A stretch of 64,000 nucleotides of DNA from Candidatus Omnitrophota bacterium (lineage in GTDB: Bacteria; Omnitrophota; Omnitrophia; Omnitrophales; Aquincolibacteriaceae): positions 92,150 through 156,149 of the forward strand of contig JAUYMS010000042.1 of the NCBI GenBank assembly GCA_030698625.1, read 5' to 3'. This document shows, piece after piece, positions 8,911-60,100 of this stretch (position 1 is the stretch's first letter; the number at the start of each line of letters is the position of its first letter). The notes below the pieces were generated by a model. It had not been told where the DNA came from. It searched no databases and saw only the letters and a program-made list of their open reading frames with translations. The translations under genes were made by a program, and so were the position numbers.

Positions 8911-9039
8911 CGGACTTCACGCCTCCTGTCGGTAATGAAGTGAATGGTAAGCTTATAAACCAATGCCGACGGATTCAACCTTTATCTTAGGGAGGCGGTA
9001 CAGAGCCCTACTCGGAGGCCGTAAATAGAATGAGAACCA

Positions 9040-9080
9040 TACATTAAGATGTATCAGATGGTATTCTTTATGCTATAATC
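9040..9080 (+). promoter_or_regulatory. Candidate sigma70-type promoter for the CBS-kor operon.
   Basis: Perfect -10 hexamer TATAAT at 9074..9079 in atgcTATAATcg, with a 110-nt leader before the ATG at 9188. The -35 element is poor. Confidence 0.3.
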
Positions 9081-9187
9081 GAGCCAAATATAAAAGACAG
9101 TCTTCAGCTGGGGTGAGGACACTCCAACATCGCCCACTGTAACAAGTTAGACTACACCGTCTTCGACATCTGAGCGGGAGAAATGCT

Positions 9188-26095: not shown

Positions 26096-26118
26096 GAAGA
26101 TTTTGATATAATAACCCC

Positions 26119-36139: not shown

Positions 36140-39100
36140 TTACGCACTTATGTCGATGAGCTCTTCGCGGATTAGACTCTCCTCGATGTACTTGCCGAGG
36201 TCGACAAGGTACGCGTCACCCTTAGATCTGGCATTGGGGAAGATGTCTTCAATGTGCTGGTCCAGCAGAGCCGCTTGCTCAAGCGGGTCTTTAACGCCGC
36301 GAATAAGTTTGGCAGGTTCGAGAAGGGCTACCGCCAGAAAAGCCAAGCCCTCGAAGTCACCGCGATCGGCGGCCTGCGGATCCACAATAAAATTGGCGGC
36401 CGTCCCGATATTTTCAGGCAGCACATTTCTATCCGAAAGAAGCGTGGCCACACCCGCTTCGCTTTCGCCCACATAAGAAGCCACATGTTCAACCGCGACA
36501 ACATTGACGAGCGTATTCAACCGCGGTAGCGTGAAAAGATCGCCCGCATCCTGTTCCTCCTGCCAGTGAATCCCGTTATCACGCTTCAAAAATGCCCGTT
36601 TCAAGACGCGTTCCAGAATATCGTCGCTCCCCAGAATTCCCACCAGGGGTTTCGCCCCCGGATGCTGCTTCTCGAATTGATCCAAGGCCCGGAAAAGCAG
36701 GTACAGTGTTCGCGGACTCTTCTCAATAAGCCGTTCAATCCAAACCGAGTCGATAAGGACCTGGCCCATGTCGGCGACCTGCTGCTGCATTTTCTCGTTG
36801 AAGCGCGGCGTCATGACCACGCGGCCTTGACCCAGTTTTGTGAGGATCGTGCTTTCGGTCGTTTGCGGCATAATTCCGGCACGCTCCGAGTAAACAGCAC
36901 GATTCAGGAGCCCCGACAACAGGGTCACCAGAGCTTCGGTAGAATGCTCTTCCAGTCTTCTCGGCAGAATCTGCGCGCGCGGCCCATGAAAGATCCGTTC
37001 GCCTTGAGCCGTGAGAAGTTCGTCTGCAACTCTCAATTCCGAGCGCTCGGAACCGTCAGGGATCTCGCCTTGCCCTAAGAGCTGCTCTAGAACCGGTTCA
37101 TAATCCCGCCTGCCGACGTCAATGAAATCCCGCGCAATGGCTACTCCCACTTCAAAATCGAATTTTTCGAATACTCTGATACCTGCGTCCAGAACCCTGG
37201 ACCGCTTATTGAAATTTTCGCGCCAGATGCCTGATAAGCCCTTTCTCAGATCACGATCCAGCTTTTCCCAGAATTTTTCGATCACGTCGCCATCGATGTC
37301 CACAGCACGCGGGTTGATAGAGTTCATGACAACGCGTCCCGTGTAATCGATCAGGAAGTCACGCGAGGGCAGATAAAGTCCCGGCTGAACATCGGCTACA
37401 TCGTATTCGATCCCCGCCCTTAAATAAATGTCGTTAGCGTTCACCCAAAACTCGGTAGGGATATCCGACATAGAAACGGTTCCTGCTGACCGCACTTTTA
37501 GTGTTTTCTGCTCGGGCAGCCACCAGTCAATGCCCCCTTCAAAATCGTCCCGCAGCTTAAATTCAGGGCTTAAAACTACAACATCCACATCTTTGTGTCT
37601 GAGCAGGTCCTTCGCCTGGACCCGTTGATTCCATAAGTCGGGCGCTATGCTGCCGATCACGATGCCGACGGCCCCCCGCTCTTTAAGAATACGATCCGCC
37701 GTTTGCAGAGCCCGTAATCCTTTCGCGGCATTGGGAGGAACAGGATCTTCCTCTTCCATTTTCTGAATCTGCAGTTGGAGAGTTTTCATGAGCTGCTTCT
37801 GAGCATAAGTCGGCTTCTGTGCCTGAATCATCATCTGGCTCATTGACCGTAGTTCGGAGCGGTAAGGGTCGTCGTCGAAATCGAATTCCTCGGCAGCATG
37901 TTCGTCGGCCCGGCGCTGCAGATAAGGATGAGCGAACTGCTGACCCGAATGCTTAATGAAAATGGGCGGCACCAATTCTGAAAACTGTGCCGCGCCGACC
38001 GGCATACCTTCAGGGGCTCCGTTCATGACGGAATACGGGAGGCCCAAATCAATGGCCTCAAGCAACAGATACCTGGAAAGGTTCTCCCCCATATTGAAGC
38101 CGCGCATAAATCTCCATGAGAGCATTCCGCCGGGCGCAACAGTGCTCATCAGGCGGCGGACGCTTTCCGTCCTGAGATCGACCCCATCGGTAGCGTTAAG
38201 AAAGACAAGGTCGAACGGTTCCTCTCCGAGCTGACCGGTCTCAATGACCTCTTCGATCCTGCCCGGCACGGTCTCAATGCCGTAGGCATCCAGTTTAAGG
38301 CGGTTCTCAAAATCAAAGCCCGAATTATTCCCGACGAGCTCGAACTCAAAGGTTCCGTCGGCCTCCAGCAATGCCTTAAGCCTAATCAAGAACTCTCCCT
38401 TCCCCGTAGCCACATCCAATATGCGGAGTTTTTTCTTATCCGCAAATTCGCTTTTCAGGATGTCGATGAACGCGGGAACTTGTGTTTCCGCCTGGACGGG
38501 TTTGCGGTACTCTTCAGACAGGAGATGGGAAAATCTTGTGAGGCGCTGAACACTATCACGCAAAGCTTCCGCATCGAGATCGAATCCTTGATCGGCGACA
38601 TGGTCCAGCATGGCCTCAAACCCCCTGCCACCAAAGGACTGTAATGCCTCCATCACGGCGATATCGAGTTCGGCTTTGGCACGAAGCTCCGGATTCGTCC
38701 TCAGCGTAAAGATCGTATATGGGTTGCCGTTTCTAAAGCTGAGCTCCGGAGAGGAATTCGGCCCCCCCGAACTCGCTCGTACATAGGCGATTCTTTTTTC
38801 AAAATCATTCTCCGGATAAGATTCGACCAAATTAAATTCATCGATCGAGATCTTGCCGCCCAATCCGTAGATTTTGGCAAATTCTGTCAGCTGACTGCCG
38901 GTTCCGTCGCTTTCACCGACGGAACTAACCATGATCAGCCCCTTCCGGTTAAGCAGAGAGCGGAGCATGAGAATCGGCCACTCGTCCGGATCAAGAGGCA
39001 GGGGCTCATAACTGAATGTCCAGTCGACATCGCCCTTTGCAACGGGTTCCTTAAGAGGGTCCCCGACACGAAATCTCGCGGACAAATCTTCTCCCGCGGC

Positions 39101-42100
39101 AAAGTTAAAATTTCCCGCTCGATTGTCACGAACCCATTCAACGATCCCCGGATTGATATCCGTATAGACAACGTCGGCCCCGCGGCGGCTGAGCTCCGCG
39201 GCCCAGTCGCCGAGATAACCGGCGATTGTAAGAACCTTGTCCCCCTCCTTGATGCCCAACGTGTCGAGCAACGTCTCATCGTCCGGCACCGTCGATTGAT
39301 GCGGGTTGCTGCCGAGCAAGTGTTCATGGAAAGTCCCGATGTTACGTTCCGCGAGCATCTTCTTAATGTCAGGAACGACATAGTCTGATCGCAGCTCGGA
39401 CCGCTCGGAATCGTCAGGGGTCTCGCCGCTCGGTTCCTGCCTTTTCTTTACTTCGCTTTCAGGCACGAGCTCCTCTGTCGTATCGTCAAAAACCAGTTCC
39501 TCAAATTCTTCGACAACTTCGTGCTCTACCGCAGGTGCCGGTTCCCTTGAATCAGCCTTTTCAATTTCGGTTGTCGGTAAGAATGCCTTTGTGCTCTTCG
39601 CGGTCTTCTTCTTCTTTTTCTTGGACTTAGGCTTTGGCCGCTCCGTCTGCACATTACCCGTAAAACTTGTTCCACCCTTCCAGACAACGCCTTCAAATAG
39701 CGGCGGGTATTTCAGGACCTGCGCAATAATGCCCCATGTCTCAGGCGATGGGATGGCCCCTTTTTCCCATTGCGCCACGGTTGGCCCCATTTCCTTAATG
39801 CGTTCTTCATCTTGTATAGGAACACCATGTCTGTCGGTAAAGACAAAGCCGGCTTCTCGGAGCGTATAAACCATATCGAGCTGCGTCATTCCGAGGCGAA
39901 CTCTCAGATCATAGATCCTTTCCGATAACGGAAGGTCGCGGAGCGCTTCATCGAGGTCCTCGATTCCCGTAATAAACGCGATCGGGTCCACGAGCAGCGC
40001 CTCGCCCAGCTTTAAGACAGTGCCCGATTTTGTGGGCAAGGCGTCGCGACGCTCCACCGGAGAATAAGTGTTGCTCGGTATGCCAGCCGCACTCGCGGTT
40101 TCTCCCTTCTTCTTTCCCCGCGCCTCCCGAATCAGTTCTATTCTTTTGCCGATAATCATTCCCGGTTCCTGCATGGTTTCACTGAGGCCCTCCGGCAAGG
40201 GTTGCGGTTTATAAGGAAGCGGCATGACAATAAACCTCTCCCATAGCGCCCTCAGAATCTCTGCGGCAAGTTTTCCAACTCCGGTGTCGGTACGTGCATG
40301 TTGAGGAAGGTCCTCGGTGATAACGAATCTGACACGTGCGATATTGGCAAGCGTAGGTTCGAATTCAGAAAGTCCCGCGACAATGATCTTGAGCGTTGCA
40401 ATACGCTGAGCATCGAACGCTTTGGCGAGTGAGTCTAGGAGCCCTCTCGTCTCCGGCCAAAAGGCCTCTTCAATAAGCGCTTGTGCCGAATCCGGCAAGG
40501 CCTCTCTGAGGTTGGCAAGCAGTCCTGAAAACTCGTCGGGGTCATTAGCCGCTATGGCTCGTTTCAGGGCACCCGGCCAATCCTCGGCCCGAAGCTCAGA
40601 ACGCTCTCGAATGATTTTTTTTGCATAAATTTCGGCTGCGTCCACAAGTGCAGACAGAAAGAGTCCATCCGCGAGATCGAGCCCTCGCGCCACAAAGAAA
40701 TCCACAAAGACCTTAGGCACCCCCCTATCTATAAGGTCTTTTGGCTGCGGAGCAACAAGCTCACTTTCCGAACCGATAAATTCCGAGCCTCTATAGAAGC
40801 GCATCAGCCTGCCGATTAGCTTCTTGGAGAACCGCTTTTCATGCGTCAGGTAGTGCGCAAGGGCTTCAGCTTCGCGCAGGTTTGCGGCGTCGGAATACAT
40901 GAGCTTCGCCTGAGAAGTATCGGGAAGAAAACCAAAGCTATGAACGGACTTCTTTGCCCGTTCGATGCGTCGCGGCGCCTTGAGATCAATGCTTGAACCC
41001 TCTCTATGTAAGCGGCCGTAATAGGCTTCATCAAAATCGAGTAGTTGCTTCTTGGCCTTGGCTTCCCGAATGGATTCCTCAAAACGTTGAAAAAGGATTT
41101 CTTCCTCCAAATACTCCAACGTTTCTCCAAGATTGTCCTCATCCACGATGCGGAAGAGCTGCATATCTTTTGGCGCTATGAATTGCAATCCGTCTTCGCG
41201 GCGGAGCAGCCGTGTCTCAAACTCCTTAAGGTAAGGCTCCCAAAATGAACGCCCGACTAGGAGAATCGGCCGCTTGGTCACTTTAGCCGTCTGCATGAGT
41301 TGAACGATGTCGAAAAGCCGGTTGAAAGTCCCCACCGCACCCGGCAGAAAGACATACGCGTAAGCATTGTAGGTCATCAAAAGTTGATGGTTGGATTCGT
41401 CATCGACAATAATGTGCCGATCGCCGAAAAATTCTTTGTCCGCAGCTAAAAATTCTCTCAATTGGTGATTCTCGGAGGCATCGTGCAGGACAGCTTGAAA
41501 CTTGTCAGACCAGCCTTGTTGCTTGGAGCGGTCCCTCAGACGATTATAGAGACGGCCCGTACTGGCACCCCGTATGAATACTTCGTCGAGCTCGGAAACA
41601 TAACTAGCAATCTTTTCCGCGATATTCAGTTTTCCATTTTCCCGATGAGGCCGGCCCGCCATCATCACAACCCGCTTCTGCCGGCTTAAGGTTTGAAGAC
41701 CTTGCTTGATCTCTTCATTGATCTTTTCGACCTCGCGCTGCGTGGTCCGATGAGGCGGATTCGTTTTTGCTTCCGCCAAAATAAAATTAACCGCCTCTTC
41801 GGGGTCGTCCGTAATCAGCGGAGGATCGGACCGGTAACCCAGCTGCTCGGAGATACCTTCTCTTTCGATCGTCGCAAAGAATTCGTCCATGAGCGGCTGC
41901 CAAAAATCCTTCCCGAGAAGGGCCACGGGACGCCGGCGACGCCAAAATTCGAAGAGTTCATCATGGGTCCCAACTCCGCCGGGAAGAAAGATGGACCCCA
42001 GGATATTTTCATGCAGGGCGATCTTGCGAGTCACAAAGCGTTCATAGCTCTTTACGATTTGGGTGTAAGGATTCGTGGTCTGTTCCCAGGGCAGAAGAAT

Positions 42101-45100
42101 ACGAATCCCCTGTGTCGGCAAGGTCCTGTACTTGACGTAAAGAATAAGCGCCGGAATCAAGAGGACAAACAACGTTGCCGGAATAAGGCTTGGGACCATC
42201 CATCCGAAGACGGAAATAAAAGACGGGCTCAGAATAAATAGGACGATCCCGGTCATCACATTAAATAAGCTGGTAAAGAATAGAGTCATTTCATAAAGCT
42301 TCTTGGCTTGCAGATAGCCGAGCATCGGTGCTTCCATCTCGCCCGGCCCCGCGCCTGTGCGCGGCGGTATCCCTTTTTTGTAGAGCATCTTCCCCAGTTT
42401 TACCCCAAGCTTGTAGTACGGATGATCCGGCGGTACCCTCGCGCCTCCGAGCACCGCAATAGCCGGTGTCCACTTATTGACTACCTCGAGGATAGTCTCT
42501 CGCTCCGGGATAACATCTTCGATAAGTGCCCGCAGGGATCGAAGCCGGTAGACGGGCCCATCATAGCCATCACTAAGATCCGATAAATCGGGGCTCCGAA
42601 GCTCCGAGCGAACAAGGCTCGCAAACTCGATTAACTGCGAAACCCAGTCGGGTCCGAGCTCCGCCTCAAGCCACTCGGCGGTACGGGGCAGCGCCTGGGG
42701 TACGGTCTCTAAGCCTCGCATCAGCGTAAACGTTTCCGATGCGGCACCTGGTTTATAAACAAAGGCATCCAGAAAATTGCCGAAGTCCGCCATCCGGGCC
42801 ATCCGGTTCAAAGCCTTAAAATTCTTGGCAACATAAACCCATTTCATGGGGATTTCTATGCCCGAACTTTCGATATGGAAAATGATGGCGGATAAGCTCC
42901 CGCCGATATCCTTCCTGCGATAGCGGTTGATAATCTCGTGTTTCAGCGTCGCCGCCTTGGCCGGCTGCTCGCCGCCGAGGAGATGGGTAATCACCTGATT
43001 GTATGCCGCATCCGAATTCTCGAGAAGCGGGTTCAAAATGACCGAGCGGATAAGTTCGCGATCAATATCGTCAAGGACCTGCAGGTTTTTCCGATCGAGG
43101 TAGGCGATCCAATCCCCTTCCATCTGCAGGAACTGACCCGGGTGAATATCGGAGTGAACGATACCCGTTTCAAAAAGCTGGTAAAAGAAGTTTTGCACCA
43201 GCACGGATACAACCCCTTTGGCCGAGGCCTGGTCTGCGGCTGTCACAGTTGTCTCTCCTTTTGATACTTTGGTCAGGAACTCATTAAACGAGGTTCCGTG
43301 CACGAATTTTTCCCGCCGCAAAAGCGCGGTATGAGTTTCCTGCACTCCGGGGACGAACAGTTTCTGAGGCAGGCCGTTGGCCGGACGAAACTTATCTGCT
43401 CTCTGAGAATCATGGTGTGTCTGCGCCGAGAACTCTTTGTTCTTCGCATGATAATCAGGATCATCGATTTCAGACTCGACACGCGTTTTGGCCTTATCGA
43501 GAAGGATCTTCAGAAACTCATAGAACTTGACCTCCTCGGCGCCTCTCTTTTTGCCGCGTTTGATGAGCCCGTCCAGGAGTTGATGCCCGAACTGGTGGAG
43601 TTCACCGGCGCGATACGCGGCATTCGGGTTCGTAATCCCGTCCGCCCATTCGTTGCCGTCTTCATCGACATTTCGAAACACGGTCACGATGGAACCGCCG
43701 CCCACGTATTCTCCCCATTCCATAATCCCTTTGAATAGAGGCGCATACTTGGGGTTCTTCTTCGCTTCTTCTTCGAGTATCATGTAGGCCTGCAGTTTAT
43801 TCATACCGCGCACGGCATCGAAGACATCGGCGATCTTTTCTTGATCATCATTCGAAAGTTCGAAATACATCCCGGCAAGCTGCAAGAGCGTAACCGCAAG
43901 GGACCCGGCGTGTTTAGACACCTCGACGGCGAGTTCGATCGGACTCACTTTTTCGCTGAAAGACTTGCGTTCCGTGACGAGATTCATATCCGCCATCTTC
44001 TCCATGGCGGCGTCCTCAAAGTGCACATAGGGAACGTCCCGGGGGAAAAAGACATTGAGCCCGACACCGTCTTCGGTTCGTCTGAGCTGTCCGCGCACTC
44101 CCGTAATAAAGGTTCGAATGCGGGTACGGATAAGGCGGTGGGTTTCCGGAAATTGGGCTTCGTCGGCAATATGCTCAAACCCCTTGGTTTCCAGATGCTT
44201 GACATAATCCCGAAACAGCATGTCTTCGATTCCGTCATTGGGATAGCGGTCCTTCGGAACCTGCAGCGAGACCTGTGAGAGTGCCGGACCCAGGAAATAA
44301 AAGATGTCCTGTGCATCCATGTCCGTGGCGATGGTCTCGGTAATGTCGTTGGCCACCTGCCGGGCCTTCTTCGCTTTGCCGACCTCCACATACTGGTTGA
44401 TGAAGTGCTGCACTAGGGAGCGCTTTGCCTTCTTGGAATAAAGGAGTGCGTTTTCGCCGTCCAGCATAATGGAACGAATCATGAGGTAGATCACGACCGT
44501 GTCCAACCGGTAGAGCGCCGGGTAAAATTCATCGAAGAAGATCATGCTCAGGTAGCGAATGTCGCGGATCATGTCGGCCGCCTCGAAATTTGCGCTGTCC
44601 AAGCGTGACGCATTTTCTTCCGCCTCTTCTTGCTCTTTCGAATCGGCCCTGCCTAAGGTCGGTGTACGGGCTTTTAATTCCCCGTAGTAAGCGAGATGAG
44701 CAACGCTCTCGATATTGCTCAATTCCATGGTCTCACTGGTGAAGGCCCGCCACCATTTGCGGGCCATATATTTCTTAAAGCCTTCGTCACTCTGGCGCGT
44801 GGAGATGGCCTCTAAAAAGAAAGGAAGGCGATCTCCCGGTTTGATAAACCGCACGAGCGTGTGGGCAATTTCGAGAAGCATCACATCACTGCCGGTCTCC
44901 AAAAGACGGTCTACCTGTTCCCAAAACCATTTCTTCATGACTTCCATGTCTTCATGGGACTTGGTTTTCTCCTCGGATAAGACATAAAGCCCTTCACGCA
45001 AGATGGTGCGCGGCAGATAGCTGTACTTTTGCAGGTAGGCAGCGGCCTCGTCGAAGTCCTTGGAACGCTTGATCATCTCCCGGAAGGCAATCGTCGCCAG

Positions 45101-48100
45101 GCTCATCGCCGAAAAGCTCTCCTGAGAGAGCAACGACACGGCCAGGAGGCCCTCGAAGTCTTCCGGCGTCTGGGGATAGTCTTTTTTCTGCCGCAGTTGT
45201 GCCATAAGGCTCGTGGAAATCCGGCGCCAATCCTTTTCGTATTCCAGCCGGGGCATGTTGACAAAGGCAATGCCCCATTGGTTGACCACGCGGATGGCCT
45301 CGACAAGCATAGCCTCCGTTTCCCCCTGCTCCGACAGGTGAGCCATGCGGCTCAGCGTCTTCTGCTTAACGCCTTTCAAAACTGAGCTGAGCCGCGAGCG
45401 CTCTTCAAGACCGATTGTCCAAGATTCTCCGATTTGGGCCCGATTTCTTCTTGCGATGGCGTCCTCGAGCCAAGCCATCAACTCGTCGACTTGGTTTAAG
45501 ACCCCCGTTTTTTCGGTCGACAGCCTGCGATTCAGCGTCGATACAAACTCGCGGCGAAAGGGCTGCCTGAAGAGATCAAGCAAAATAACCTTCTTCATTT
45601 CCGGCATGTAAAACTGGCGCCATTTGTCGTTTTTCCTAGCGGAGAATCGAATGGACCAATGGTTTTTAGCCTCCAGATACCCATAAAGAAACTCTGAGAG
45701 TTCTCTCATTCTTTTTTCCCGGTCCGTCGTCGGATCTAAGCTCCCATACCAATCAAGCAACGCCTGCCGCAGATCATCGGCACTCATGGCGTTGACCTCT
45801 TCCATGATCTTCTCAAAGCGGCTGGAAAATTCGGTCGTTGCCTCTTGCGCAAACAGTCCCCAATCAAACGTCACACCGCCCTGACCGGGACGGCGCCTTG
45901 AGCGTTCACGGAGCTGCGCCATTCTTTCACCCGCATCACCGGCAAGCCGCGTCACATTAGCGCCCAGAGCAAGAATCATGTCCGCTCTCTCCATGACCGT
46001 AAGCTCTCTGCGGTCCAACTGCGAGACCATGTGCTGCGTCGTCGCATTCATGAGAATGCGCATATTGGAGCGAAGCTTTTGCACTTCCTTGTCGTCCACT
46101 TCGTAGTTGATTTGGGCCGACATAATTTTGCGGACATCAAGACTTATCAAAATGCGCTCCATGAATCGTTCGGCATCAATTAAGTTCACACTCATTTCGG
46201 TCATGAAAGTCTTAATCTCATTTGTATCTACGGCGTCAAACGGGATCTCGTCCTGGAACATAACCATCCGCTCAATCTTCGGGGTGTCCGACCACCGTGT
46301 CATGACTTCGACATCGCCGATTTGATAAGCGGCCTTCCCGTGAATCAGCTGCGTCCGCACATAAACACCCATCAGGCGGGTATCCCACGAAATAAGGAAC
46401 TCCCGGGCATCGCCGAAGCGCTGCTCATAGGCCTCCGCGGCCTTCTGGCGCAGCTTTGCGAGAGCCGGGAATGCCTCCTTGAACTCTTCGTATTTTTTTC
46501 CGTCCATGGCGGAACGCATCGCCTGCTCGCTTAAGCCAAGCAATTCCTCCGGAGCGAGCGGCAACCCTATGCGTTCAAAGATCCGGGCTTCCATCATCCT
46601 CGCAACGCGCTCCGGAGTAAAATATTCGACGAATTCTTCGCGGGTTACTTCGTAGACCTCGTCATCGCCGGGAAACAGGAACCCTTCCGAGCGATGCAGG
46701 ACAATGTCATGCAGCATCAACAGCAGCACGTTCTCACCCTCCTCATCAAATCCCAGGTTCTGGTTGCGCAGAAATGTCAGCACCGCCTCTGTCCATTGAT
46801 CACGGGACAAGTGCCGCACCAAATGTCCAAACTGGTTCCAGAACCGCGCCGGCTCAGCCTTCACAAGATCTTCCACAAATCCTTCGGGAATTTCGCTGGG
46901 GATCGTATCGTCGATCCGGAGGGCATCCCAATCAATGGGATGAACATCATGGCTCAATTTGTCTAGATGAATGAAGCGGACGAACTCGCGCAGGTTGGAG
47001 TAGCGCATCTCCATGGAACCGTGCACCGGATCAAGACCGACAGCTCCTGTCGGCATAGCCTCGTCACCTTTTGCTTGCTCTTCTGCACTTTTCTGTGCAA
47101 CGCGCGCACTCCATTTTCGTTTGAACGTAAGCGCCCCGATCGGATTCACTCCCCTCTGATTGAGCTCCCACAACATCGCCAAGTCGGCTTCAAATTCATT
47201 AAGCCTCCAGATACCGAAGCCATAAATGTCAAAGGGGTCGAGATCCCCGCGTTTAAACCTATGCGACCTCTCGATGTGCCTGAGTTCATGCATGAGAACA
47301 GCCAACACTTCCTCCTCGGTATCAAGAATCTTTAACATGCCCGTCGTGATATAGATCTGACCGGCAGCGGAGGCAAAGGCGTTCTCCTCTTTGTCATCGA
47401 TAACGGCAACACGTGCCTCGTGCGTACGGATAAGCCGCTGCAACAACCCGTTGAGGAATACGCTCGTTGGATGGTTTTCCATGAGAATATTCTTCTCAAA
47501 AAGGGTCCGTTGGACGGCGATCGACTGCGCCTCAAAAAAGCGGTCACGGAAAGTCACGGCACGAAGTTCCGAGCGCTGTCCGGTTTCGACGCGCCGTAGC
47601 TCTTCGAGTTGTTCGCGTAGCCCTTCCTCTAAGCGGCGGAAGCGGTGCGGCCCCCGTGCTCCGAGCAGTGCCAGCGCCCGGCGATTGTCGAAAACCGGCG
47701 GATTCATCACCTTTGAGGGCGGGTCTACTGATAGGCGGCTCGTTTCTTCTTCTGAGAGTACGCGCAACATCTTCACCGCCCGCAACACATCTGCCGGGGC
47801 ATAGTTGTAACCGCTGGCAATATTAATGATGTCGTGTTCGCCTCGAATAATTTTTGGGAGCTGAGAAATTTCTTCCAGAACCGCCACTGCATCCGACAAA
47901 TGCACGTAATCTCTTGTATACCCGGCAAAACGCCCTTGATACCCCTTAAAAATCGGGCGAATCGCTTCCGGAATAGGATGGTTCGAAGACGTATCTTTCT
48001 TGCCGAAGAAGCTGGTGGGTCTCACAATAACAACGTTGTCACGCTTTTCGAGCAGCCGCTCACCTATCATCTTTGCGAGTTTGTAAGGATAAACTTCAGC

Positions 48101-51100
48101 CGGAATGGGATGGCTGCGTATAAATTGTTCAAGCCACTTCACGAGGGTTTCATGCAAATCATCATCTGCGTCAAACTCTTCCTGCCGCGCTTCATATTCG
48201 GCGATGACTTGATTGATCCAGTCGTTGACCTCCTTAGGAGGAACGGGGATCATGCTTTCGTCGAGAACGGCTGTAATCTGCCCGCCCGTCCAATAGACCA
48301 CCTGACTTGAGATAAAGACAACGCGTGATTTTTCCGTTCTGCCTGCACGATCGCGCAAGCGCACCACACGATCCGCACTGAAGCCGTTAACCGCTATCAC
48401 AACGGCCTCGTCTTCGGCGCGTTGCGCGGTCTTTTCCGTCATGGCGCCCGCCAGATAGACGATGTCATTGTCCTCCGTCAGCCTTGACAGAGACGCATTG
48501 GATAAAAGATCGCCGTCGACGCGCTTCAGATTCTCATGCTCCGGCAGGTTCTCAGCCCGCGGGGAGTCCGTTCGGACCAGGACTTGCACGTCATGTCCTT
48601 CGGCCAAGAAATGTTTCACTAAGCCGTTCCCGAGAACGCCCGTACCCCCAGTGACCAACATTTTTCTGGGTATCTTCTCGGTAACTACCACTTGGATCTC
48701 CGCGCCAAGCTGGATGCGCGAACCCAAAAGCGCAGCTGCGGCCGCCCCATGCCATGAGTCGCTTATGTTACTCGATGGAATCTTTCCGGACAGATCCTCA
48801 ATGGCCACCTGCGGAGCCTCATTTGTAAGATAGTCCTGAATACCGGCGCTGACGGCGTCGTGTACAAGATCCCGGCTAATCCACCCGGCGCGGTGAACCG
48901 TTAATTTATCTTCGTCGTAAACACGTGCGATTTCCGCATATAAACTTCCGAGACCCCGCCCCATTTCGACAAAAATTTGCCTCGTATAATCACGAACCGC
49001 CTCGGAGGGATTCTCCAGCAACTCTTCAAGCTGACGGATGATTCGCGGCACATCCGCGGCAGTTTTCATCTCCTGAATGTTCTTGCGGATACGCTCCGGT
49101 AAGGGATTAGCGCCACTCTCGGCGGCCAGCCTTTTTTGCAGGGATTCGATCATCCCGATCGGCGATGAAACCGTATAAAGGTCACCCTGCAAACCGCAGC
49201 GGCAGAAGTCGGAATCGCCGGAAAAGTCATATTTCAAATGTGCTTCCAGCGGTGAGGCGATCAACTCCCCGTCGTTGAGAATGGACAACCCCAGCCCCGT
49301 ACGGAAGGTTGTCTGAACAAACAAACCATGCGCAATGTCGCGGCCCTGATAGAGCCCGGCTAGATTGGCGGAGTTTTCAAAAGTCAGGTGCGGATATTCG
49401 CTTTTCAATTCTTCGAGGGATTCCTGGGCATCCGGATGATCCCGCCCAAGTTGGGGAAGGTCTAAAATGATGCCTTCCGGATGAACCAGTCCCGGCACAC
49501 CTACCGTAATCGCCATCGACTGGAGTTCACGATCAGAAATTCCGATATGACGGGCTGTATCAAGAAGTACGGTGCGAACGCCTTCTCCGATTCGGCCTTC
49601 CAACCGTCTTACGGAAATTTCCTGAGTGTAGATCGGTTCTTCGCCGTCAAAAGCCAGCACGCGAATGCTATCGGCGCTAAGGTCGACACCGATCGCGATG
49701 CCATCCTTCGACCGTGACGGCTTTTTAGGTTTGTAATCATATCCCTCCGTTCCCTGTACGGCATCGGCCCCCCAAGCCACGGGCTGACTGAAATTGGCGT
49801 GATAGGCCGGCGTTTGGTAGACGCTTTCAAAATGCGTCCTGATGGCAGTCCTTAAACTATCTTCCGAAATATCGAGATCACCGCTCAATTCAACGTCCAC
49901 CGCACGCATGCCCCGCAATTCTGCCTGATACGCCAATAAACCGCCAAAATAATCCAGAAGCTCCTGATTAGCATCCGTGAAAAGACGCCGAGGAACCACG
50001 ACTTCCTCCTGCCCCAAGCTGCCCTGCGTATGGCGAATGGTCAGACGCACGGTGATGAGATCCTTACGGGCCATAGACAACCCGAGATGCGCAATTGCTT
50101 GATGTTTCTTGCCTATCGTCTTGGCCCCGCGAAATCGGCTTAGCGACTTTTCATACTCATGCACGAGAAAAATATCACGGCGCCGGACAAATTCGTCGGT
50201 TTGAAGATTGAGCCTACGCTTGACTTCGGCGAAAGGTAAATTTTCACTTTGAACCTCGTGAGTAAAGGAAGCGATACGAAGCTTCAAGAGCGGTGTCAGC
50301 GCCGGAGCGAGTCCCCGCCTCCTGTCCGGATGCGAGTCACGATAGGCTTCGAGAAACAGAAACACGACTTCTGCCCATTCCCGGGCTGAAAAACGCCCCG
50401 CGCTTTCAAAGGAAGACCCCTCCGCAGCCAGGGCAGAGAGTTTTTGGAAGGTTGCCGCCGGCACAAGGCCCTCGTAGGTCTCCCTTTCTTGGGGAAATTC
50501 GAAACGGAAATTCTCCAGGAAGCGTTCCGGCTCAATGTTGATAAATTCTTCGGTCCGGATCCCTTCGATGTCATGACGGACAACCTCCGTCAACTCGTCT
50601 TGATCGGCCAGCCACGGCTGACGCAGCGTAAAATCAAAGAAAGCTTGCACATAATTGGGGAAACGGTTGTACGGATGCGGCACCCAATCGTGCTCCTTGA
50701 CCTTGATGTTGATTCCCTGCATCTGCTTGCCGAGTTTCGTCGCTTTGGGAATAAAAAAGAACTCTGGAAAGGCATAACTCCAAATGGAGTAATCATCGAG
50801 CAGGGCATCGAGGAGCGCGCCTTGGCGTATTCCATACTCCCCTTCAGCTTCGAGCAGTCGCTTCCCGACCCAAGCACTAAAAAACGGCGTCACGAAATGG
50901 TCCTTCAAAGAGCGGTCGTCATCTTCGTACTTGCGCGCGCTGTAACTTGACACCGTGAGGTCCTTGTCTTGATAGAGCGGCTCCAGGAACGCAGGGATCC
51001 ACTCAGGGGTCGTATTGCGAATATCATCATCCAGAATCAGGAAAACGCCGGGCCGGTCGGCCTCTTTCGGAAACAGTATCCGTGCCATCAGTAGCCCCGC

Positions 51101-54100
51101 GCGCAAGGACCATCCTTTACCGCGAAACCGGTCAGGCTTAACGTGCCCGACCACGTGGACATCTTCGTTCTCAGGGACGCGCGACTGTGATTCTTCCAGC
51201 ATGTCGGCAAATTCCGTCGCCCTCTCGGATTCCCCGGTTAAAAGAATTGTGGCCTTGCGTCCCGGGTAATGTTTTTGAATGCCTTCGGCGATGTTACTCA
51301 CCACATTCTTTGTATTCGGCGAATAGCGATACGTCGGGACCATGATAAAAATCCCGGAAGCGCCGTTCTCAGTGAGGGTCCGGCCGGCAAGCTCGATAAC
51401 GCCGCGATCGAATGCCTGGATCTCCGGCAGCATTTTCTTCTCATCTTGACGCTCGCGTAATCGTTCACGTGGCATCATCGGATACCAATGGGATTCTCCG
51501 GTCGGCCTATTGCGGGATTCATTAGAAGAAACCACACTCTCGAGGGCCGCCGCGGCCATCGCAAATGGAAAACTCAAGATTTTTGTTAGGGTTAGCAGAT
51601 TAAAGCGAATAAAGTTTAAACTCGTCACCTTGCTGCGCAGCAAACGAGATTCCAGCGTGACGTGAATCCGCGACCCTATTTTTATTAGGAGAAACAGCCA
51701 GGACTCGCGGAAAGACAACGGTCCCTTCAATGCTAAATTAAAATCGGAGATAAGTCCGTCTTCTTCCGGAACCGCGATAAAACCGGGAGCTCTGCGCCAG
51801 CGGTCGATCCAGGACGCGACCGGAATCGGCCGCCCCAAATTCATGTAGTGCTGGGAAACCTTTTGATAAAGCCAGCGATTGAGCCGCGCTTCGGCAGAAA
51901 GGATGGCGAATCCGGTGATAATGACTCCGAGAGCCGTAAGGGGCAGCCACAGGCCCGCGATCTGGGCCGCAGTAAGTGCGGCAGCCGCCGCGGCAATCAC
52001 TGCCGAGGCAAATACCCATTGCCGCCCCGCCGCTCTGGTTCCATCGCGCGATACTCCCGGCTCCGGCACCTGATCGTCGTCTACGCGAAGTTCAGACCGC
52101 ATGGCAATAAAATACCGCCCCTGTGTTTGTTCCAGCGCGGCTGCGGTATAAGCGGCTCCGCGTGCGCCGAGTTCGCGTCCGTGATCCGACGCCTTGAGGG
52201 TGTACGAAGAATCCGAATCCTTTCGCCGAATCTGGCCACCGATCTTTTCGTGAAAGGTTGCGCCAAAATCTCCCTGCAGATTACCTCCGCCAAGGACCCA
52301 CATTGCAATTCCGTTGATTCGCGTCGATTCGATAATATGTTCAGCCATGGCCTCGGCCGCCTTATCCATGAGCCGGGCGGCAATGACTTCATCGTTTGTC
52401 AGCGGCGAACCCTTTTCCCTCTTTGCCCAACCGAGCACAGCGGCAGTCATCAGGGGCTCGATCGAGAGCCCTTCAAATTCGGCTTCAAAACCCAAAGCTT
52501 TGGCCCGCTGTTGAAGGATGGGAGTACCCGCAAAATACTGAATGTGTTCGGGACGTCCGGCCATTTTTCCGATTGGGCTGGTCTGCCCCGTGAGCGTCAT
52601 GCCGCGATAGACAGAATCAAGCACAACGGATCCGTTTCGGATAACGGCCCGGCCGACTCCCGTACCCCACCACAAAACATTTGCGGTCCCCGTTCCGGGC
52701 TCGAAGATTGTGGGATTTTCCTTAACAATACCGGCCGCGACACCCTGCACGTCATTAAAAAGATTTAGGGGGACATCTCCCAGAAATTCTTTGAGCTTAT
52801 CGTAAAGACCTCGGGCACGTTGACGATCGTCGTCTGTCCAAAAGCGGTCGAGAAAGCCAAAGTTACGATTTTCATACCCGTCATTCTGCCCTGGGAGCAA
52901 AACAACCACGCGCTTAGGCTCTTCCCCGAAGCTCTCAACAAACTTTTGAACCACATCGGCAACCTCCCCAACAAAGACCGCACCACCGATTATGCCTTTA
53001 TGACGTTGGACCTCTTCACGAACAATCCGGCCGTCCTTAAGAGCGGCTAGTTTAATGGAATAAGCACCAACATCGACGCCGATAAACAGGCCCTCAGGAT
53101 AGGGTTCTATCAATCCCGGAAGCTGCTGTTCCTGCTTCACCTTTCGCGGACCTTCATCCGCGTCGCTTGCCGCTTGAACATTAACCGGACTCACTTCAGG
53201 CATAGCAAAACTAAGACGGTCCGTATGGGTCCGGTGAAGATGCGCCTCAATGCCGGCCGTGATCTGCTTTTCTGTATCCCTACCATGAGTCACTTCAACC
53301 TGGAGAGACGTACTGTGATTATCGATAAGAAGATTAAAGGAGAAGTGGGCAAGCCGTTCAACAACGGCACTTCTCAGTCCCGGATGCTCCGACCAAGGCA
53401 CGGTGAGTTCGCGACGCGGGCCGTGAGGGGTTTTTAAAACAACATTGACGGACTCAATTCCGGCCAATTCACGAATTTCCCGGAATATCGCCTCTCGCTC
53501 TGTTAAGAACGCGGTGCGATTTAGTTTTGACAGCAACCTGTCCAGGTCGGATGTCGGTCCGCGCGCAGGTGCGGCCGGAAACGGATACAACTTCCGTCGG
53601 GTCATATGTTCGGCAACCGTGCGGGGAACAAAGATCTTCGCCTTGGGATTATCGCGCACCTCCGTCGAACTGATGCCGCCGGTTTCCCTGCCGACCACAT
53701 AGACGGGCAAATCATGCGAGATACCGGCAACCACACCTCGAGAGACTTCCCCTCTCCTCTGAGTAATTTCAAGCGTTGTCGCTGCCTCCGCCAAAGGAAA
53801 ATCACGCCGTTCGGTCGTTACCAGTGACACTTTTTGAAAGTTATCCCAGGACAAATTGATTTCCGTGAGCGCTCTTTGCACGTTCCGCGCACTGCTCTCG
53901 AGCGAATCGCTGGCAGCCAGCACGGAGAGTTCCAACGAAACACCGGGGTTGAGTTCAAAGAGGTTCAGTCCGAGGGTTGCCGATCCCCACTCAGGGTGAC
54001 TGACCCCCAGGGGCGAAGAGTGGAAAAGCGGACGGAAGAGATCCGCCGTTTGATGGGCCATAAAATAACGGTTTCCCGCGGGAGACTTCGCTTCTTTGTA

Positions 54101-57100
54101 TCCCTCAATGTCGCCCATGGGGAAAAAGACGATGCCGTCGAGGTTCAACTCATCCATGACACGAAGCGCAAAAGCAACGTGTCCCCAGTGCGTGGGGTCA
54201 AAGGTACCGCCAAAGACGCCCAGATGAACCTGCGATTGTGGCTTGGAAGCCGACATGGCCTGCCCCTCGTGAACGCGAAGAGTCGCATAGGGCTGAATCA
54301 CCCCGTCACGAATTTTTTGTTCGATTGATTTCAGATTCGCGATGATCTGCCGCTTTGTCGCCAGAAACCTTTCGGTAAGCGCCTCATCATCGACGGCATC
54401 AAGCTCCTCTTCAGTGGGAAAAGCCGCTTGAATCATACCGAGGGAAGGCATGCCCTCGAGCGGCAGTGTCTCATCCAAGGAAATTGTTTTCTCGATAATC
54501 GGATCCCCGATGGCCTCGAAGGCGCGGCGGGCTGCGTGCCGGATTCTGGCAACAGGATGATCGTAATACACGGTCAGCGTATAGAGTACATCGGGACTTA
54601 CCTCTAACATGCGTATCGGATCCGAATATTCAGCCAATGTCTCCATCGCCTCAACCACGAGAGCGATCTGATCGTCGCGCAAATCACGCTTCGAGAGGTG
54701 ATTTAGATACCGCGCCGCCGTACGGATGTGAAGGGTGTCTCTGTTTTCTACCGTATCCAACGGGGCGCTGAGACGATCGAAGGCCTTCTGCGCCGCCATG
54801 CGGACATCTACGGAGCGTTCGGTCTTCGAAACATAGTCCGCCCAACGGATCAAGACAACATAGATATCAGGATTGATTTCCAGGAGCGGCTCGGGACTTT
54901 CGAATTTCGCCAAAGCCTCCAGAATGCTGACAGCGAGATCCTCTTCCTTCGGCGTCAGCCTTTCACTCTGATAGGCCCTTAGAAAGTTTGTGATGACGTG
55001 AACGGACTCGACGATAGCATCATCCAGCTGTGTTTGAGCAAATCGCGCCGGATCTGCATTTAAATTGTGGACCGCCAAAACACCCGCTGCACGGAAATCT
55101 GCTTTTGATAATTCACCCAATGCATAATCGCGCATTACTTTATCGTCACCGAAAGTAACGCGCGTCAGGAATTCAACGGCTGCACCGCTTCGTTGCTCAC
55201 GCATAGCACGCAATGCCGCGTGTACCAGCCCGTCGTCTTCAGTGAAATCAATCGCTTTGACCAGAAAATCAAAAACCTGAGGCGTTCGCACTTCTCCCAA
55301 TTCCCGAAGAGCACGGATGAGAAGCCCACGGTTCACCGTAGGATCTTCCTGATAGAGAAGTCTTTCGATAATCGTAAAGTCATCCAAGCGTGCAAGTGCC
55401 TTGAGGATCGCATACTGCACGATAGGATCCGCCTCCGGTTCTTCATAGACCAGCTTCAGCTTGCTGATCATTCGGTTCCGGTTTTCCTCATCGAGGTCTG
55501 CCCCCAAATTCCCCAGGGCCTCCACGACGACCCTGCGCACGGGAATGCGGCCCCGCTCCACCAGGACACGCTCAAAGAGGCTGTTGACGAGCGCAATGCG
55601 TTCATCTCTTGTTAACCCCTTGAAGTGCCCGCTCAAGAGTACCGCCTCTCGCGCAAGCTCGGGGACTTCCATACGCAAACCGAGCATGGTGAGCATGTAC
55701 CTCAGGAACGGATGAATCGTAATCGCCGTATCCTCACCGCCGTATCCCTCTGAAGCCATACGCAGATGCTTGATAAAGCGCACGCGATTATGCACGTGCC
55801 TCGGATGCGTTGTGGCCTGTAGGCTTTCGGGCGGTAGATGCCCGTCGGGATATAGTTCCGGGTAAGCAGTGGCAATCTTCAGCATCTGACGGACAATAGG
55901 TTCGAGAACGCCTTCGTGCATCGAGTCGTCGTATTCGATGCCTGCGAGGCGACGAAAAATCATAAAAGCATATAAGCTCTGCTCTCCGTACAATTCCTTT
56001 GGCAACACATCCTCGTCGGAAAGGAGAACGTTGAGCTCTTCGATCATCTCCACGATTTCCCTCTTCTTACGAAGCTCTTCGGATTGCAGATTGGTTTCAG
56101 GGGAAATCGCCACCTCTGAGAGTTCGCGGCGGGTCGGCATTGCGATGCCGACAATCTCTCTGCCGTGCTGTTCTAAGAATGCCGACATCGTCCTGGCGCG
56201 GGGATCCACACTTAGCGCTAATTCCTTGCGGACAAGTTCAAAGGTCTGCTTTAAGTGAGTTGCATACTCCTCGCGACCGTAGCGCATGGCGCGGACGAGT
56301 TCTCCGAGCTGCTTGTCGAAGCGCGCAAAGGCCTTGCCGTCGAGCACGGAACGAAAATCACGCATCAATTCGCTGGAAAGGCCGCTTACCTTAAAAATAC
56401 GGCGCGTGAGTCCCTCGCGAAGATCAATGACGCGCTCCACGCGGGACGCCTCATCGCGTAAGCGCCAAAATGCGATACGAATGTCGTTGGCGACAGCATA
56501 AGGTGAGCGTGCCAATACGGAACCAAAACTCACGGAAATTTGCTTCGCACCTAGCTCCGCCGTCCGTTCGCGAACCGTCTCACGCCCGCGCTCGTCATAC
56601 TCACGCACCTTGTTCTCCGAGTGGATCGCGAGAAGCCTCTTTTCATCGTAAACTCGCACCTCATCCAGCACCGGAACGAAAAGGTAGTTTGGGATCACCG
56701 TTTTTGCCAGGAGATCGGGGAAGTCTTCGGTGGTCGTTTTCATCAGAAGCGCCGTCGGATGCTGGCCGGTCGGGCCCGACTCGCCGACACGTACGGGCCT
56801 CAAATTCGTCCACTTATCGCGGCCGAAATTCGGAAGGACAAAATTTAATCTCGCGTCGGGATAAATAATATGGCGCGCACTATCGCCCACCGTGCGCACA
56901 TTAATTTCCCTCGTCAACTGTGCGCGCAAGTAGGACAACCTGTTATCCGCGTTATCGTAGTAGTTCCTAAGCACATTTTTCATGAAGACCTTGCTCAAGG
57001 GTTGCTTTGTCAAGGTCTTCAGCGAAATCCGGCCCGTCGAAGGTATCGCAAGCGTTTCCGTCGCGCCGCCCTTGGACATAAGAATGACGTGGTCGCTGTT

Positions 57101-60100
57101 GTGGCGGTAGCCGATAAAGAGAACGTTTCGCAAATCAGGGCTGACCATGGTGCGTACGAAAAAGTCGCCGTCAGCGATGTGTTGGTTCAGGAATTGAACT
57201 TTTCCGGAAAGGTGAGCTCCAAAATTGAAGTAGATATTCGGGCCAACCTGCCGCCGGCCCAAATTAACCTGTATGACGCGCGCCTGAGACGGTGCCATAG
57301 GAGCGGTCAATCCCGCTAGGATCTCCTGCGATGTCCGGTACAGCAACCGGTGGTCCGCTAAAAGATCCCTCTGCCATTCGACTCTTAACTCAGAGCGCTG
57401 CGACCCATCAGAAATCTCAATCGGGGACGGCCCACGGGCCTGGAACAAAGATGTAGACGGCAGGATGACGGTTCGGGATGGTTCGAAAACGTCGGTCAGA
57501 CGTGACTGCGCGACGGGCAGATGCGGTGCGGGCGATGAACCGTATGGCACATAAGGCGCAAAATGCAGGACTTCTTCCTCGCCTTCGGCTGCGCTGCCTT
57601 TCAGAGTCCGGCCCGTGAAAATAAATAGTTGCGCGGCATCGCGGTCGGGGGCCCTGACATCTATGACAGTGCCCGGTTCGAGTCGGGCGAGCATGGCCTC
57701 AGCCGAGGTCGGGTGCGAATCGGGCCGCGGAGCGAAACGACTGTAGATGCGGAATGCCTGCCGGTCGAGTACTTCGTCCACAGTGAGAGCGCCGGCCCGG
57801 TCCATTTCACGGCGGGCTCTGCGCAAATACCTTAAATCACTGATGGTACGCGCCAAGTCATGCAGGTGTGCGGAAAGCGCTTCCGCGTATTCGGCGGGAG
57901 CAAAGGATTCCTCCGGTTTGAGATAGACGGCATCATCGCTAAGTTTCAAATCATAGGCCTCGAAGAGCCGGCGAAGGCGGTCGGTATGCTGTCCAAGATT
58001 TTCGGACAGAACACGAGGGGGAGCGATGCGGCTAAGAAAGGGCCAAGTCCGGGACCAAGCCCAGGAAGGTCCGGATTTAAGGAAGGCCCGTTCGTGAACC
58101 GCCACAAATGTTTCAGCACCTAGGAGCGCCTCAAATGCGGCAGTCCAATATTTCCGGCGCAGTGTCACAACACGCGGCTTGAAGAATCGCGACTCTGCTG
58201 ACAGCGTCCAGACTCTCGGCGGCTTTTTTCCGAATCGCCCGGCACCGGCCGGGACGTACACATAATATTTCGCCAGCCCTTCCTGCAGCGCGCGCCTTGC
58301 CCAGTCGACTTCCGTCCAGGTCGCAAGCGGTCCCCGCAGGGCCAAGTCAATGCCCCCCTGCGTACCGACTCCGACCAAGACTTCGACCGGCCTGCCTTTT
58401 TGGTCGCGTAGACGGCGAAGATGTTCTCTCAACTCGTTGTAGTCGGTGACCGCCACGGCCGCGGGTTCGGCGCTGCGTGGCTCAAACGTTATGCCGTTGA
58501 TAGTTGCGCCGGTCAGACCCTCGGCGATCTGTTCTACGGTTTCCTCAAACACCTCTTCGGCCTCCCTGCCCCGGGGATCAATCGGCCTTCCCAGATGAAT
58601 TCTCAGGGAAAGCGGCGAAAGTCTGGAAAAAAGTTGGCTGAAAAATTCACCGCGTTTTTCCCGCAACACTTTGCTGCGCTTGTCGAGTTCATGCCGGTCT
58701 TCACCGGCCGCCCTGCCTTTCTTCGCCTTTATCTTATACTTCCTCTTCGCGAGCACGTACCTTGCCCGAGCGGCACGCCACCTGGCAAAGAAAGTAACGA
58801 TACGAGTCTCGCCTGAAATTTGGGTCGGAATCACAAACCGTCCTTCGTTTACGGCAATGCGCGCGAATGTCCCGTGCCAGTCGCGCTTCCATTCGTCGAT
58901 CATGGCACCGGGTTGTATCTCGGCGCGACCCAAAGGAAAGAAGGCCAGACTTTCTCCCGCGCGAACCGCGGCTTGAACTTTGTCAAAGGTTCCGCTCGGC
59001 CCGGCAACTGCCTCCTGGAGCTGTTTGCCCGAGAGGCTTTCGGCCCTGAGCAACAAGAGGATGTCCCTCATCGCCCGTTCAGCCCCATTGCCCAGCAGCG
59101 TCATTGTCAGGGCATCGCCGGGCAGGATTCCGGCTTCTCGGATCATGTCGGGCTTACGCAAGTCGTACACCTGCGATCCCGCATGCAGGGACGCGATAAA
59201 GTGCGGTTTTTGGGGATAATCTTTGAGGATGGCTGCGACCTGATCTGCAGGAAACTCGAGGCCCGCCACCCCTTCCCACCGGACATTTTCGTCCACTTCA
59301 ATGGCCAGTCCTTTGCGGATCAAGACCTGCTGAAGTTTCCCTACTTCCGAGGGCCGGGCAACAAAAAGCGGCAGCCGCCCCGTGCGCAGGTAGAGTTCCG
59401 TGACCAGAACAAGGCCGTCCAGCGTGCTGATGTGGTTGGCGGCGATAATATAATTGTCGCCCTCAGGCAAATTTTCAATGCCTGTAAGCCGGACAAAGTA
59501 CCGGACAAAAATGCGGTAGAACCGCAGCCACCACTTGGCCGGAGCAGGATAGTCTTTAAAGGCCTTGATCGGTGCAACCCTTAGCGGTGGTTCCGCAACC
59601 GGTTTGTCGGGCAAGAGCTCGTCCTGCTGTTCGGTTCTTAACTCAGAGCGCTCGGGCATTGTTCCGGCGGTTTTGTGGTAAAGTTCCAGATTATTCCGAA
59701 GGGTGCGGTCTTTAGAGAAATTGGCGATTACATGGTTACGCATAATGCGCGAGTTGAATTGCCCGGCCTCAGCCCGAGACAACACATTTTTTATTCCCAT
59801 AGCAACATCAAAATCTCTGCGGTCGGCATTGACGAGCATGCCGAGATCAGAAATCGGAAAAGGCCGTTCGGCGTAGCGCGGATCAAACGAAGCACGAATA
59901 CCGGGAATGTCGGTCGCGATCACGGGCTTGCCCATCGCCCAGGCTTCAAGGATCACACGTGTCAGCACCTCGTCTTCCGACATATGGATGAGCGCGTCCG
60001 CGAAACCATAGAGCTGAGGCAATTTGGTCTGCGGTACAAACCCGAGGAAAATCACTTTGTCCCGGAGCGCTTCCGGCAGGCGCCGGATCCGGGCCCGGAC

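Follow-up and report, generated by a model that had tools for sequence, protein, structure and literature searches.

The 64,000-nucleotide stretch analysed here (hereafter, the window) comes from a Candidatus Omnitrophota bacterium (assembly GCA_030698625.1, contig JAUYMS010000042.1, positions 92,150 to 156,149) and carries on its minus strand a single open reading frame (ORF) that encodes at least 9,283 amino acids (Table 1). No stop codon intervenes between position 63991 and the end of the window, and the N-terminus of this giant protein therefore lies outside it. The protein is a mosaic of enzyme cassettes: Pfam and NCBIfam scans recognise FHA, GT4/GT1, acyltransferase, HEAT, NadD-like, ROK-like, epimerase, M48, ABC1, two LOG, HTH and methyltransferase domains, with more than 12 Pfam families represented and about 80% of the length bearing no annotation. 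In this report, we address a HExxH-containing segment of the giant protein that directly follows one of its copies of the pentapeptide RSELR. The original prediction, made from the sequence, was that a metallopeptidase built into the chain next to a putative cleavage motif is what a self-processing polyprotein would need. We find that the segment is, by its sequence and modelled fold, an M48-family zinc metallopeptidase domain with intact catalytic residues, and that RSELR marks the junctions between modules. The evidence suggests that the M48 domain is a cargo of the chain rather than the enzyme that cuts these junctions.

The segment at positions 47100-47575 corresponds to residues 5473-5631 in the frame of the giant ORF. 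Within it lies LAVLMHELRHIERSH, which includes HELRH, the sole HExxH of the protein. Because 0.37 such motifs would be expected from composition, a bare HExxH in a frame of this length is not remarkable; the domain assignment, by contrast, is significant. The Pfam profile Peptidase_M48 (PF01435) matches residues 5526-5579 (E 3.5e-9; 37.2 bits against a cutoff of 20.3), and the relatives P0003 and P0147 cover almost the whole profile. The NCBIfam scan of the giant ORF returned BepA, HtpX and LoiP as its only peptidase-like matches here, all of them sub-threshold. In the Protein Data Bank, the best sequence match is 3c37, a Geobacter “Peptidase, M48 family” (Q74D82; E 1.3e-6 with the single sequence and 1.1e-9 with a profile), and BepA and HtpX rank after it. 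The segment had been likened to M48 and M56 peptidases alike. The first likeness is borne out; M56 membership (BlaR1/MecR1) was rejected, as the Pfam scan that found M48 gave no M56 match at E <= 0.01.

The conservation of the catalytic residues is close to complete. In an alignment of 29 family members, both histidines of HExxH are invariant, and the catalytic glutamate is present in 28. The Glu-containing block that had been noted downstream is present as RLNEFEAD; the Arg, the first Glu and the Asp of this R..ExxAD pattern are invariant in 29/29 relatives, as are the His, Gly and Arg of HGSxxxR. The first Glu of EFEAD is the presumed third zinc ligand, a role that we assign by likeness to ZMPSTE24 and BepA. 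An AlphaFold2 (AF2) model of residues 5433-5802, built on the 29-member alignment, has a predicted local distance difference test (pLDDT) score of 86.3 and a predicted template modelling score of 0.79 for the M48 region. A Foldseek search with this model against the Protein Data Bank matched BepA (6ait, E 1e-6), 3c37 (E 4e-5; template modelling scores of 0.5-0.55 on the target) and ZMPSTE24 (E 0.03); these are the only matches at E < 0.1, with probabilities of 0.96-1.0. The HExxH is thus modelled in a peptidase fold, not in the non-peptidase fold that had been named as grounds for abandoning the idea. From these motifs and the modelled fold, the domain would be a catalytically competent zinc metallopeptidase. 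Its conserved core starts some 30-35 residues after the preceding RSELR, where 30 had been stated, and this RSELR, which had been counted as the fourth copy, is actually the fifth in the window.

The M48 domain opens a cassette that is bounded by RSELR copies 5 and 6. About 1,100 residues of helical sequence separate it from a C-terminal ABC1/UbiB-like atypical kinase domain (E 7e-8; 32.4 bits against a cutoff of 22.9), in which the catalytic-loop block VHSDIHPGQF is invariant in 5/5 close homologues. The kinase-like domain falls below the UbiB equivalog cutoff and is therefore not UbiB itself. A word-indexed search with the 435-residue M48 segment gave one weak match, and exhaustive HMMER searching was needed to find the family; with residues 5473-6672, it revealed 570 relatives. 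Among the best 150 of these 570 representatives, 92 are proteins of 1,300-1,800 residues, and the relatives checked against Pfam have M48 at the N-terminus and the ABC1/UbiB-like kinase at the C-terminus. The stand-alone relatives are found in metagenome-assembled genomes (MAGs) labelled Omnitrophota, Daviesbacteria (Candidate Phyla Radiation), Gammaproteobacteria and “uncultured bacterium”. No signal peptide was found in the stand-alone proteins, and HExxH is intact in 90 of 91 of them. A stand-alone member of the family, P0007, has HKLGH in place of HExxH and is probably an inactive M48 paralogue.

The boundaries of the cassette agree with the ends of these stand-alone proteins. Cassettes in P0002-P0005 and the stand-alone proteins of about 1,500 residues are homologues of the cassette over its full length. 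Among the stand-alone proteins, the counterpart of the RSELR site has a median position of residue 23 (interquartile range 12-36), and their C-termini map to about residue 7080 of the giant protein, 48 residues ahead of RSELR copy 6. Their gene neighbours have no homology to the other cassettes of the giant protein. Further, the stand-alone proteins are nearly free of the junction motif (2 sites in 138,993 residues), and none occurs in the neighbouring ORFs. Judging from these alignments, the M48-ABC1 cassette is an evolutionary unit that exists mostly as a stand-alone, signal-less protein of about 1,500 residues and has been fused into the giant ORF in this organism. It is an undescribed and widespread two-enzyme architecture, and the cassette is mobile.

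RSELR occurs ten times in the giant ORF, against 0.03 copies expected. The synonymous codons differ between copies, and the signal therefore resides at the protein level; a DNA-level repeat as the origin of the motif was rejected on the same grounds. The motif keeps its position where little else is shared. In P0005 (6,511 residues, from an NCBI MAG; locus L002), the M48-ABC1 cassette is the only part homologous to the window protein, and RSEVR and RSELR stand at its two borders, as RSELR does in the window protein; P0005 has about 15 R/K-S-E-x-R sites in total. P0003, P0004 and P0141 have GAR[LM] at these cassette borders. A sample independent of M48 came from a metagenome scan seeded with the “head” domain, the N-terminal domain of a second RSELR-bearing ORF in the window (described below), which yielded 42 loci (L008-L049, JGI contigs). 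Most of the head-seeded ORFs are dense in motifs and stay open for more than 3,800 residues, up to the point where the fetched DNA ends. The lineages have their own variants: RSE[LVA]R; RAEVR, with up to 16 copies in 3,892 residues; and LSDSR, with 11 copies in L029. Pooled, R[SA]ExR occurs at 229 sites in 107,644 residues of related giant ORFs against 6.2 expected, an enrichment of about 37-fold.

The setting of the motif is linker-like: Ser, Pro, Ala and Gly are over-represented just before it, and after it come a small residue and then acidic ones. In L041, a cassette with the motif at its borders matches a LOG cassette of the giant protein. RSELR is absent from all frames of the ~36 kb of ordinary genes between the two window ORFs. 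A word-indexed search with the C-terminal 1,584 residues of the giant ORF, which include four junctions, found no homologues. The sequence comparisons support the conclusion that the motif is a junction signal between modules, placed at the borders of independently folding cassettes. The proposal that RSELR is a recognition motif between modules has therefore held up well: the enrichment extends over dozens of related giant ORFs, and the cassette borders are kept in P0005.

What happens at these junctions? The most telling case is that of CsrA. In L009 and L015, a complete CsrA domain starts at the residue right after RAEVR, such that RRAEVR is followed immediately by MLVLSR; in L009, the domain spans residues 712-769 of the ORF (Pfam profile positions 1-52 of 53), and in L015 it begins at residue 731. 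We take MLVLSR to be the native CsrA N-terminus by comparison with E. coli MLILTRR. The N-terminal strand of CsrA belongs to its functional dimer. The abutment of RAEVR on the native Met-1 favours a cut after the last Arg, by which CsrA would be released with its natural N-terminus. Also, Arg is the only residue common to all of the variants (RSELR, RAEVR, LSDSR and GAR[LM]), which fits the P1 residue of a protease better than a docking surface. Phosphorylation of the Ser as a general role of the motif was rejected, as Ala replaces Ser in the RAEVR lineages. Because of the enrichment, the location at cassette borders, the abutment on CsrA Met-1 and the shared Arg, we read the motif as, on balance, a probable Arg-directed maturation site, with the cut likely after the final Arg.

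Two considerations weigh against this reading. We infer junction cleavage from comparisons, and the motif could serve another purpose. In addition, the AF2 model places RSELR copy 5 within a long helix (pLDDT 58-82) rather than in an obvious loop. These points suit an alternative in which the giant protein remains unprocessed, as one membrane-tethered multi-enzyme chain in which R[SA]ExR would have a non-proteolytic role, as a linker or as a docking site (an assembly factor or an export factor might bind there), and M48 would be one active site. The helix occurs at the one junction modelled, and the two predicted transmembrane hairpins of the giant protein (Table 1) would suit a tethered scaffold. 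Two preprints on Omnitrophota giant genes (West-Roberts et al. 2023, bioRxiv 10.1101/2023.11.21.568195; Nielsen & Lui 2026, bioRxiv 10.64898/2026.06.07.730766) describe such ORFs as giant proteins in one piece, and neither reports a cleavage site. On the other hand, an unprocessed chain leaves unaccounted for the coincidence of the motif with the termini of the stand-alone homologues and with the native Met-1 of CsrA; the one shared Arg fits a P1 residue better than a docking surface, and the exchange of Ser for Ala excludes phosphorylation as a general role. We consider this alternative possible but rather doubtful.

An important question is whether the M48 domain itself is the enzyme that acts at the junctions, as the idea of a self-processing polyprotein implied. 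It would then be a built-in maturase that cuts RSELR junctions in its own chain, and in trans in the second ORF, releasing the enzymes. Several facts invite this idea and tell against a cargo role. M48 is the only peptidase domain recognisable by Pfam and NCBIfam in the 9,283 residues, its catalytic set is intact, and it sits right after a junction. P0003, P0004, P0005 and P0147 combine the head domain with the M48-ABC1 cassette, and lineage junction motifs are found in P0003, P0004, P0005 and P0141. Any other junction protease is hypothetical, in a giant protein that is mostly unannotated, and M48 could act in trans on the second polyprotein of this genome. The multi-module M48 proteins say little on this point, because they were found by searching with the M48 cassette and are thus subject to ascertainment bias.

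The head-seeded loci are free of that bias. A six-frame hidden-Markov-model search of all of the fetched loci found no M48 domain in 40 ORFs (L008-L047) or their flanks; most of these ORFs were read over their first ~3,900 residues, such that an M48 cassette could lie downstream or elsewhere in the genome. Most of the 40 are motif-rich, and four motif-bearing ones are complete and were scanned with Pfam. These four (1,564, 2,325, 2,558 and 2,677 residues, with 4-9 sites) have no peptidase match in Pfam; their recognisable content is CsrA, dockerin and NUDIX. The part of the self-processing idea that concerned the junctions is supported, through the conservation of the borders and the enrichment of the motif, whereas the part that made M48 their protease is not supported by the distribution of the domain.

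Other lines of evidence point the same way. The M48 cores are 55-67% identical in all pairs and do not group by the type of junction motif: the core of the giant protein is 58.9% identical to that of P0005, which shares the RSExR type, and 61.1% identical to that of P0004, which has GARM. This failure to co-vary is weak evidence against an M48 domain whose specificity is matched to the sites. Zincins read mainly P1', whereas sites that are defined on the non-prime side, by an Arg at P1, and leave P1' free to vary belong typically to serine and cysteine proteases; cleavage of the junctions, with their conserved non-prime side, would therefore be atypical for a zincin. Moreover, the cassette lies between two junctions, as other cargo modules do. 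Because M48 is absent from the head-led ORFs over the stretches read, the stand-alone form of the cassette is nearly motif-free and the core does not co-vary with the motif, a role for M48 as the junction protease is not supported, and we regard it as improbable. The data suggest instead that M48 is a cargo. That the domain is a degenerate pseudo-peptidase, kept only for a structural or regulatory function in the ABC1 kinase cassette, is very improbable: the HKLGH of P0007 and a Pfam match that covers only profile positions 24-82 of 186 might hint at it, but HExxH, ExxAD and HGSxxxR show little or no variation in the 29/29 and 90/91 relatives cited above, the window copy included, and the model has the full M48 fold.

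Our favoured explanation combines these elements. The M48-ABC1 cassette has been joined to numerous other enzyme cassettes in one giant multi-enzyme ORF, and the junction motif (RSELR in this protein, R[SA]ExR across the wider family, LSDSR or GAR[LM] in other lineages) would most probably mark sites of proteolytic maturation. M48 would be one cargo enzyme, released or displayed, that acts on its own peptide substrates with its kinase partner. The junctions would be cut by another, Arg-directed protease, for which the candidates are the head domain and an unlinked enzyme. Processing of the junctions by some protease other than M48 is modestly favoured, and is much likelier than maturation by M48. 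The explanation as a whole, with M48 as cargo and maturation after Arg by a different enzyme, we hold with roughly even confidence.

Table 1. Positions, in window coordinates, of the two motif-bearing ORFs and of their features. Residue numbers refer to the giant ORF frame.
Feature	Position	Strand	Residues	Remarks
Giant ORF	36140..63991	minus	at least 9,283 residues	single open frame; stop at 36140
RSELR copy 1	63074..63088	minus		
RSELR, further copies	59636-59650, 57383-57397, 52085-52099, 40589-40603, 39389-39403, 37847-37861, 37031-37045	minus		
RSELR copy 5	47561..47575	minus	5473-5477	N-terminal cassette border
RSELR copy 6	42596..42610	minus		C-terminal cassette border
M48-helical-ABC1 cassette	42611..47575	minus	5473-7127	1,655 residues, between RSELR copies 5 and 6
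M48 metallopeptidase domain	46967..47524	minus	~5490-5675	Pfam PF01435, AF2, Foldseek
LAVLMHELRHIERSH	47261-47305	minus	5563-5577	contains HELRH
HELRH	47276..47290	minus	5568-5572	HExxH; zinc-binding and catalytic motif
EFEAD	47183..47197	minus	5599-5603	ExxAD motif; RLNEFEAD is 5596-5603, with invariant Arg in front
HGSMEMR	47003..47023	minus	5657-5663	counterpart of M48 C-terminal H-P-x4-R, Gly-Ser for Pro
ABC1/UbiB-like atypical kinase domain	43010..43531	minus	6821-6994	Pfam PF03109
Predicted transmembrane hairpin 1	~51899-52015		3993-4031	
Predicted transmembrane hairpin 2	~42119-42286		7236-7291	
C-terminal “tail” module	36143..36970	minus	9008-9283	last 276 residues
Second polyprotein-like ORF	1..4194	minus		starts at 4194, runs off left window end; >1,398 residues
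Head domain of second ORF	2275..4194	minus		640 residues
RSELR in second ORF, four copies	2260-2274, 1441-1455, 979-993, 187-201	minus		

The second ORF merits attention as the bearer of the head domain. Its N-terminus is signal-peptide-like (MLKITTWLTAIIFFASNFVAAP...), and the head domain is followed by the four RSELR copies and a kinase-like cassette. The head domain is homologous to the N-termini of P0003, P0004, P0005 and P0147 and to ORFs of the 42 metagenome loci, and it also matches proteins of Omnitrophica and Elusimicrobia. Close homologues have RSEVR directly after the domain, and stand-alone heads end there; several heads have signal-peptide-like or lipobox-like N-termini. The pattern (I/V)QDAH, VEG, FY...RD, (I/V)TGG(F/Y)H is kept. 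The window copy has no match in Pfam and no sequence match in the Protein Data Bank. Its AlphaFold model (pLDDT 75) has the erythromycin esterase EreC as its top Foldseek match (E 0.16), with 2rad also listed, and the copy in L014 (ORF residues 371-479) matches PF04187, “Haem-binding uptake, Tiki superfamily, ChaN”, at E 0.006, below the cutoff. These are weak signs, from sequence and model, that the head domain may belong to the Tiki/ChaN/erythromycin-esterase superfamily, and a hydrolase or protease at the front of each chain is possible.

At the other end of the giant ORF, the tail module has no Pfam match; its homologues form the very C-terminal ends of complete head-led ORFs in loci L014 and L015. 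Some of these proteins, at least, thus have both head and tail in common. The second transmembrane hairpin is inserted close to the first LOG (lysine-decarboxylase-like) domain.

The amino-acid composition of these proteins is unusual. The giant ORF has 2 Cys in 9,283 residues, both in a CRCG remnant (residues 4930 and 4932), and the second ORF has none in 1,398 residues; in 78,821 residues of head-led ORFs, the Cys content is 0.06%. For comparison, 16 ordinary window genes have 0.95% Cys, and the median in the stand-alone M48-ABC1 proteins is 0.37%. The depletion is therefore not found in the latter proteins, whereas the copy of the cassette in the giant ORF is Cys-free. The near-absence of Cys, the signal-peptide-like or lipobox-like N-termini of the heads and the two transmembrane hairpins together suggest export or surface display, which would be odd for a chain of cofactor-dependent enzymes.

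The frame itself is not an artefact of assembly, an explanation that was rejected: a stop-less frame of 27.8 kb does not arise by chance, and the same genes occur in an NCBI MAG contig and in Logan contigs. Neighbouring genes are identical to MDP3920996-MDP3921027 of a Candidatus Omnitrophota MAG; used as queries for sequence beyond the window, such genes led to short Logan contigs only. Elsewhere in the window (24511-28157), precomputed annotation (locus L001) lists a cluster of an epimerase, SIR2, Peptidase_Mx (PF15887) and a D-Ala-D-Ala-ligase-like ATP-grasp protein, adjoining a dTDP-sugar isomerase gene.

The present locus bears on the question of whether the giant genes of Omnitrophota encode single enormous proteins or chains that are cut into many enzymes. 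It offers a concrete site, R[SA]ExR, with a predicted cut after the last Arg, and two candidate proteases, namely the M48 domain and the head domain with its weak resemblance to the Tiki/ChaN superfamily. The cargo status of M48, if correct, guards annotation against a tempting mis-assignment as the maturase. Were M48 the maturase in this genome after all, the giant ORFs of Omnitrophota would be true bacterial polyproteins matured at R[SA]ExR, and the domain, cutting in cis and in trans, would do as a metalloprotease what the cysteine protease domain does in MARTX toxins, as the first M48 enzyme whose site-specific role is directed at Arg.

Among characterised proteins, the nearest to the window M48 domain are BepA/YfgC of E. 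coli (6ait, 6sar) and 3c37. They have the same fold (Foldseek E 1e-6 to 4e-5), the HExxH, ExxAD and H-x5-R motifs and a soluble, non-membrane M48 core, at a sequence identity of 15-18%. Unlike them, the window domain has neither a signal peptide nor a TPR domain, and it is joined to ~1,100 helical residues and an ABC1-like kinase within a chain of at least 9,283 residues. Much closer are the stand-alone M48-helical-ABC1 proteins (P0018, P0026 and those of loci L004-L007), which share full-length homology, domain order and catalytic motifs with the cassette. They are the products of separate genes, nearly motif-free and with ordinary Cys content, whereas the window copy is RSELR-flanked, Cys-free and part of a giant ORF.

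In its tiling of many unrelated Pfam domains (GT1, ROK kinase, methyltransferase, HEAT), the window protein resembles the giant multi-enzyme ORFs of Omnitrophota, and its content fits the “multi-enzyme metabolic cluster” class of these proteins (Nielsen & Lui 2026). Proteolytic processing of such proteins has been suspected, with C39 and S8 peptidase domains proposed and the cleavage points stated to be unknown (West-Roberts et al. 2023). Unlike these published accounts, with their C39 and S8 domains, the present locus combines a junction motif, M48 and ABC1, which are mentioned in the text of neither preprint. Full-text literature searches for the motif strings and for “bacterial polyprotein” returned nothing relevant.

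The MARTX toxins offer the most instructive comparison. Every known MARTX toxin has a cysteine protease domain, which cleaves after Leu. Here, by contrast, most motif-bearing ORFs lack M48 as far as they were read, Arg is the residue that is conserved, and processing is deduced from sequence. Of the features by which a polyprotein may be known, a protease that accompanies the sites was not found in the head-led ORFs or their flanks, but a site that recurs at module borders is present. In that respect, and in the idea of a protease carried within the chain, the giant ORF resembles the MARTX toxins and the viral polyproteins: all are chains of unrelated modules, joined by short linkers in which one site recurs.

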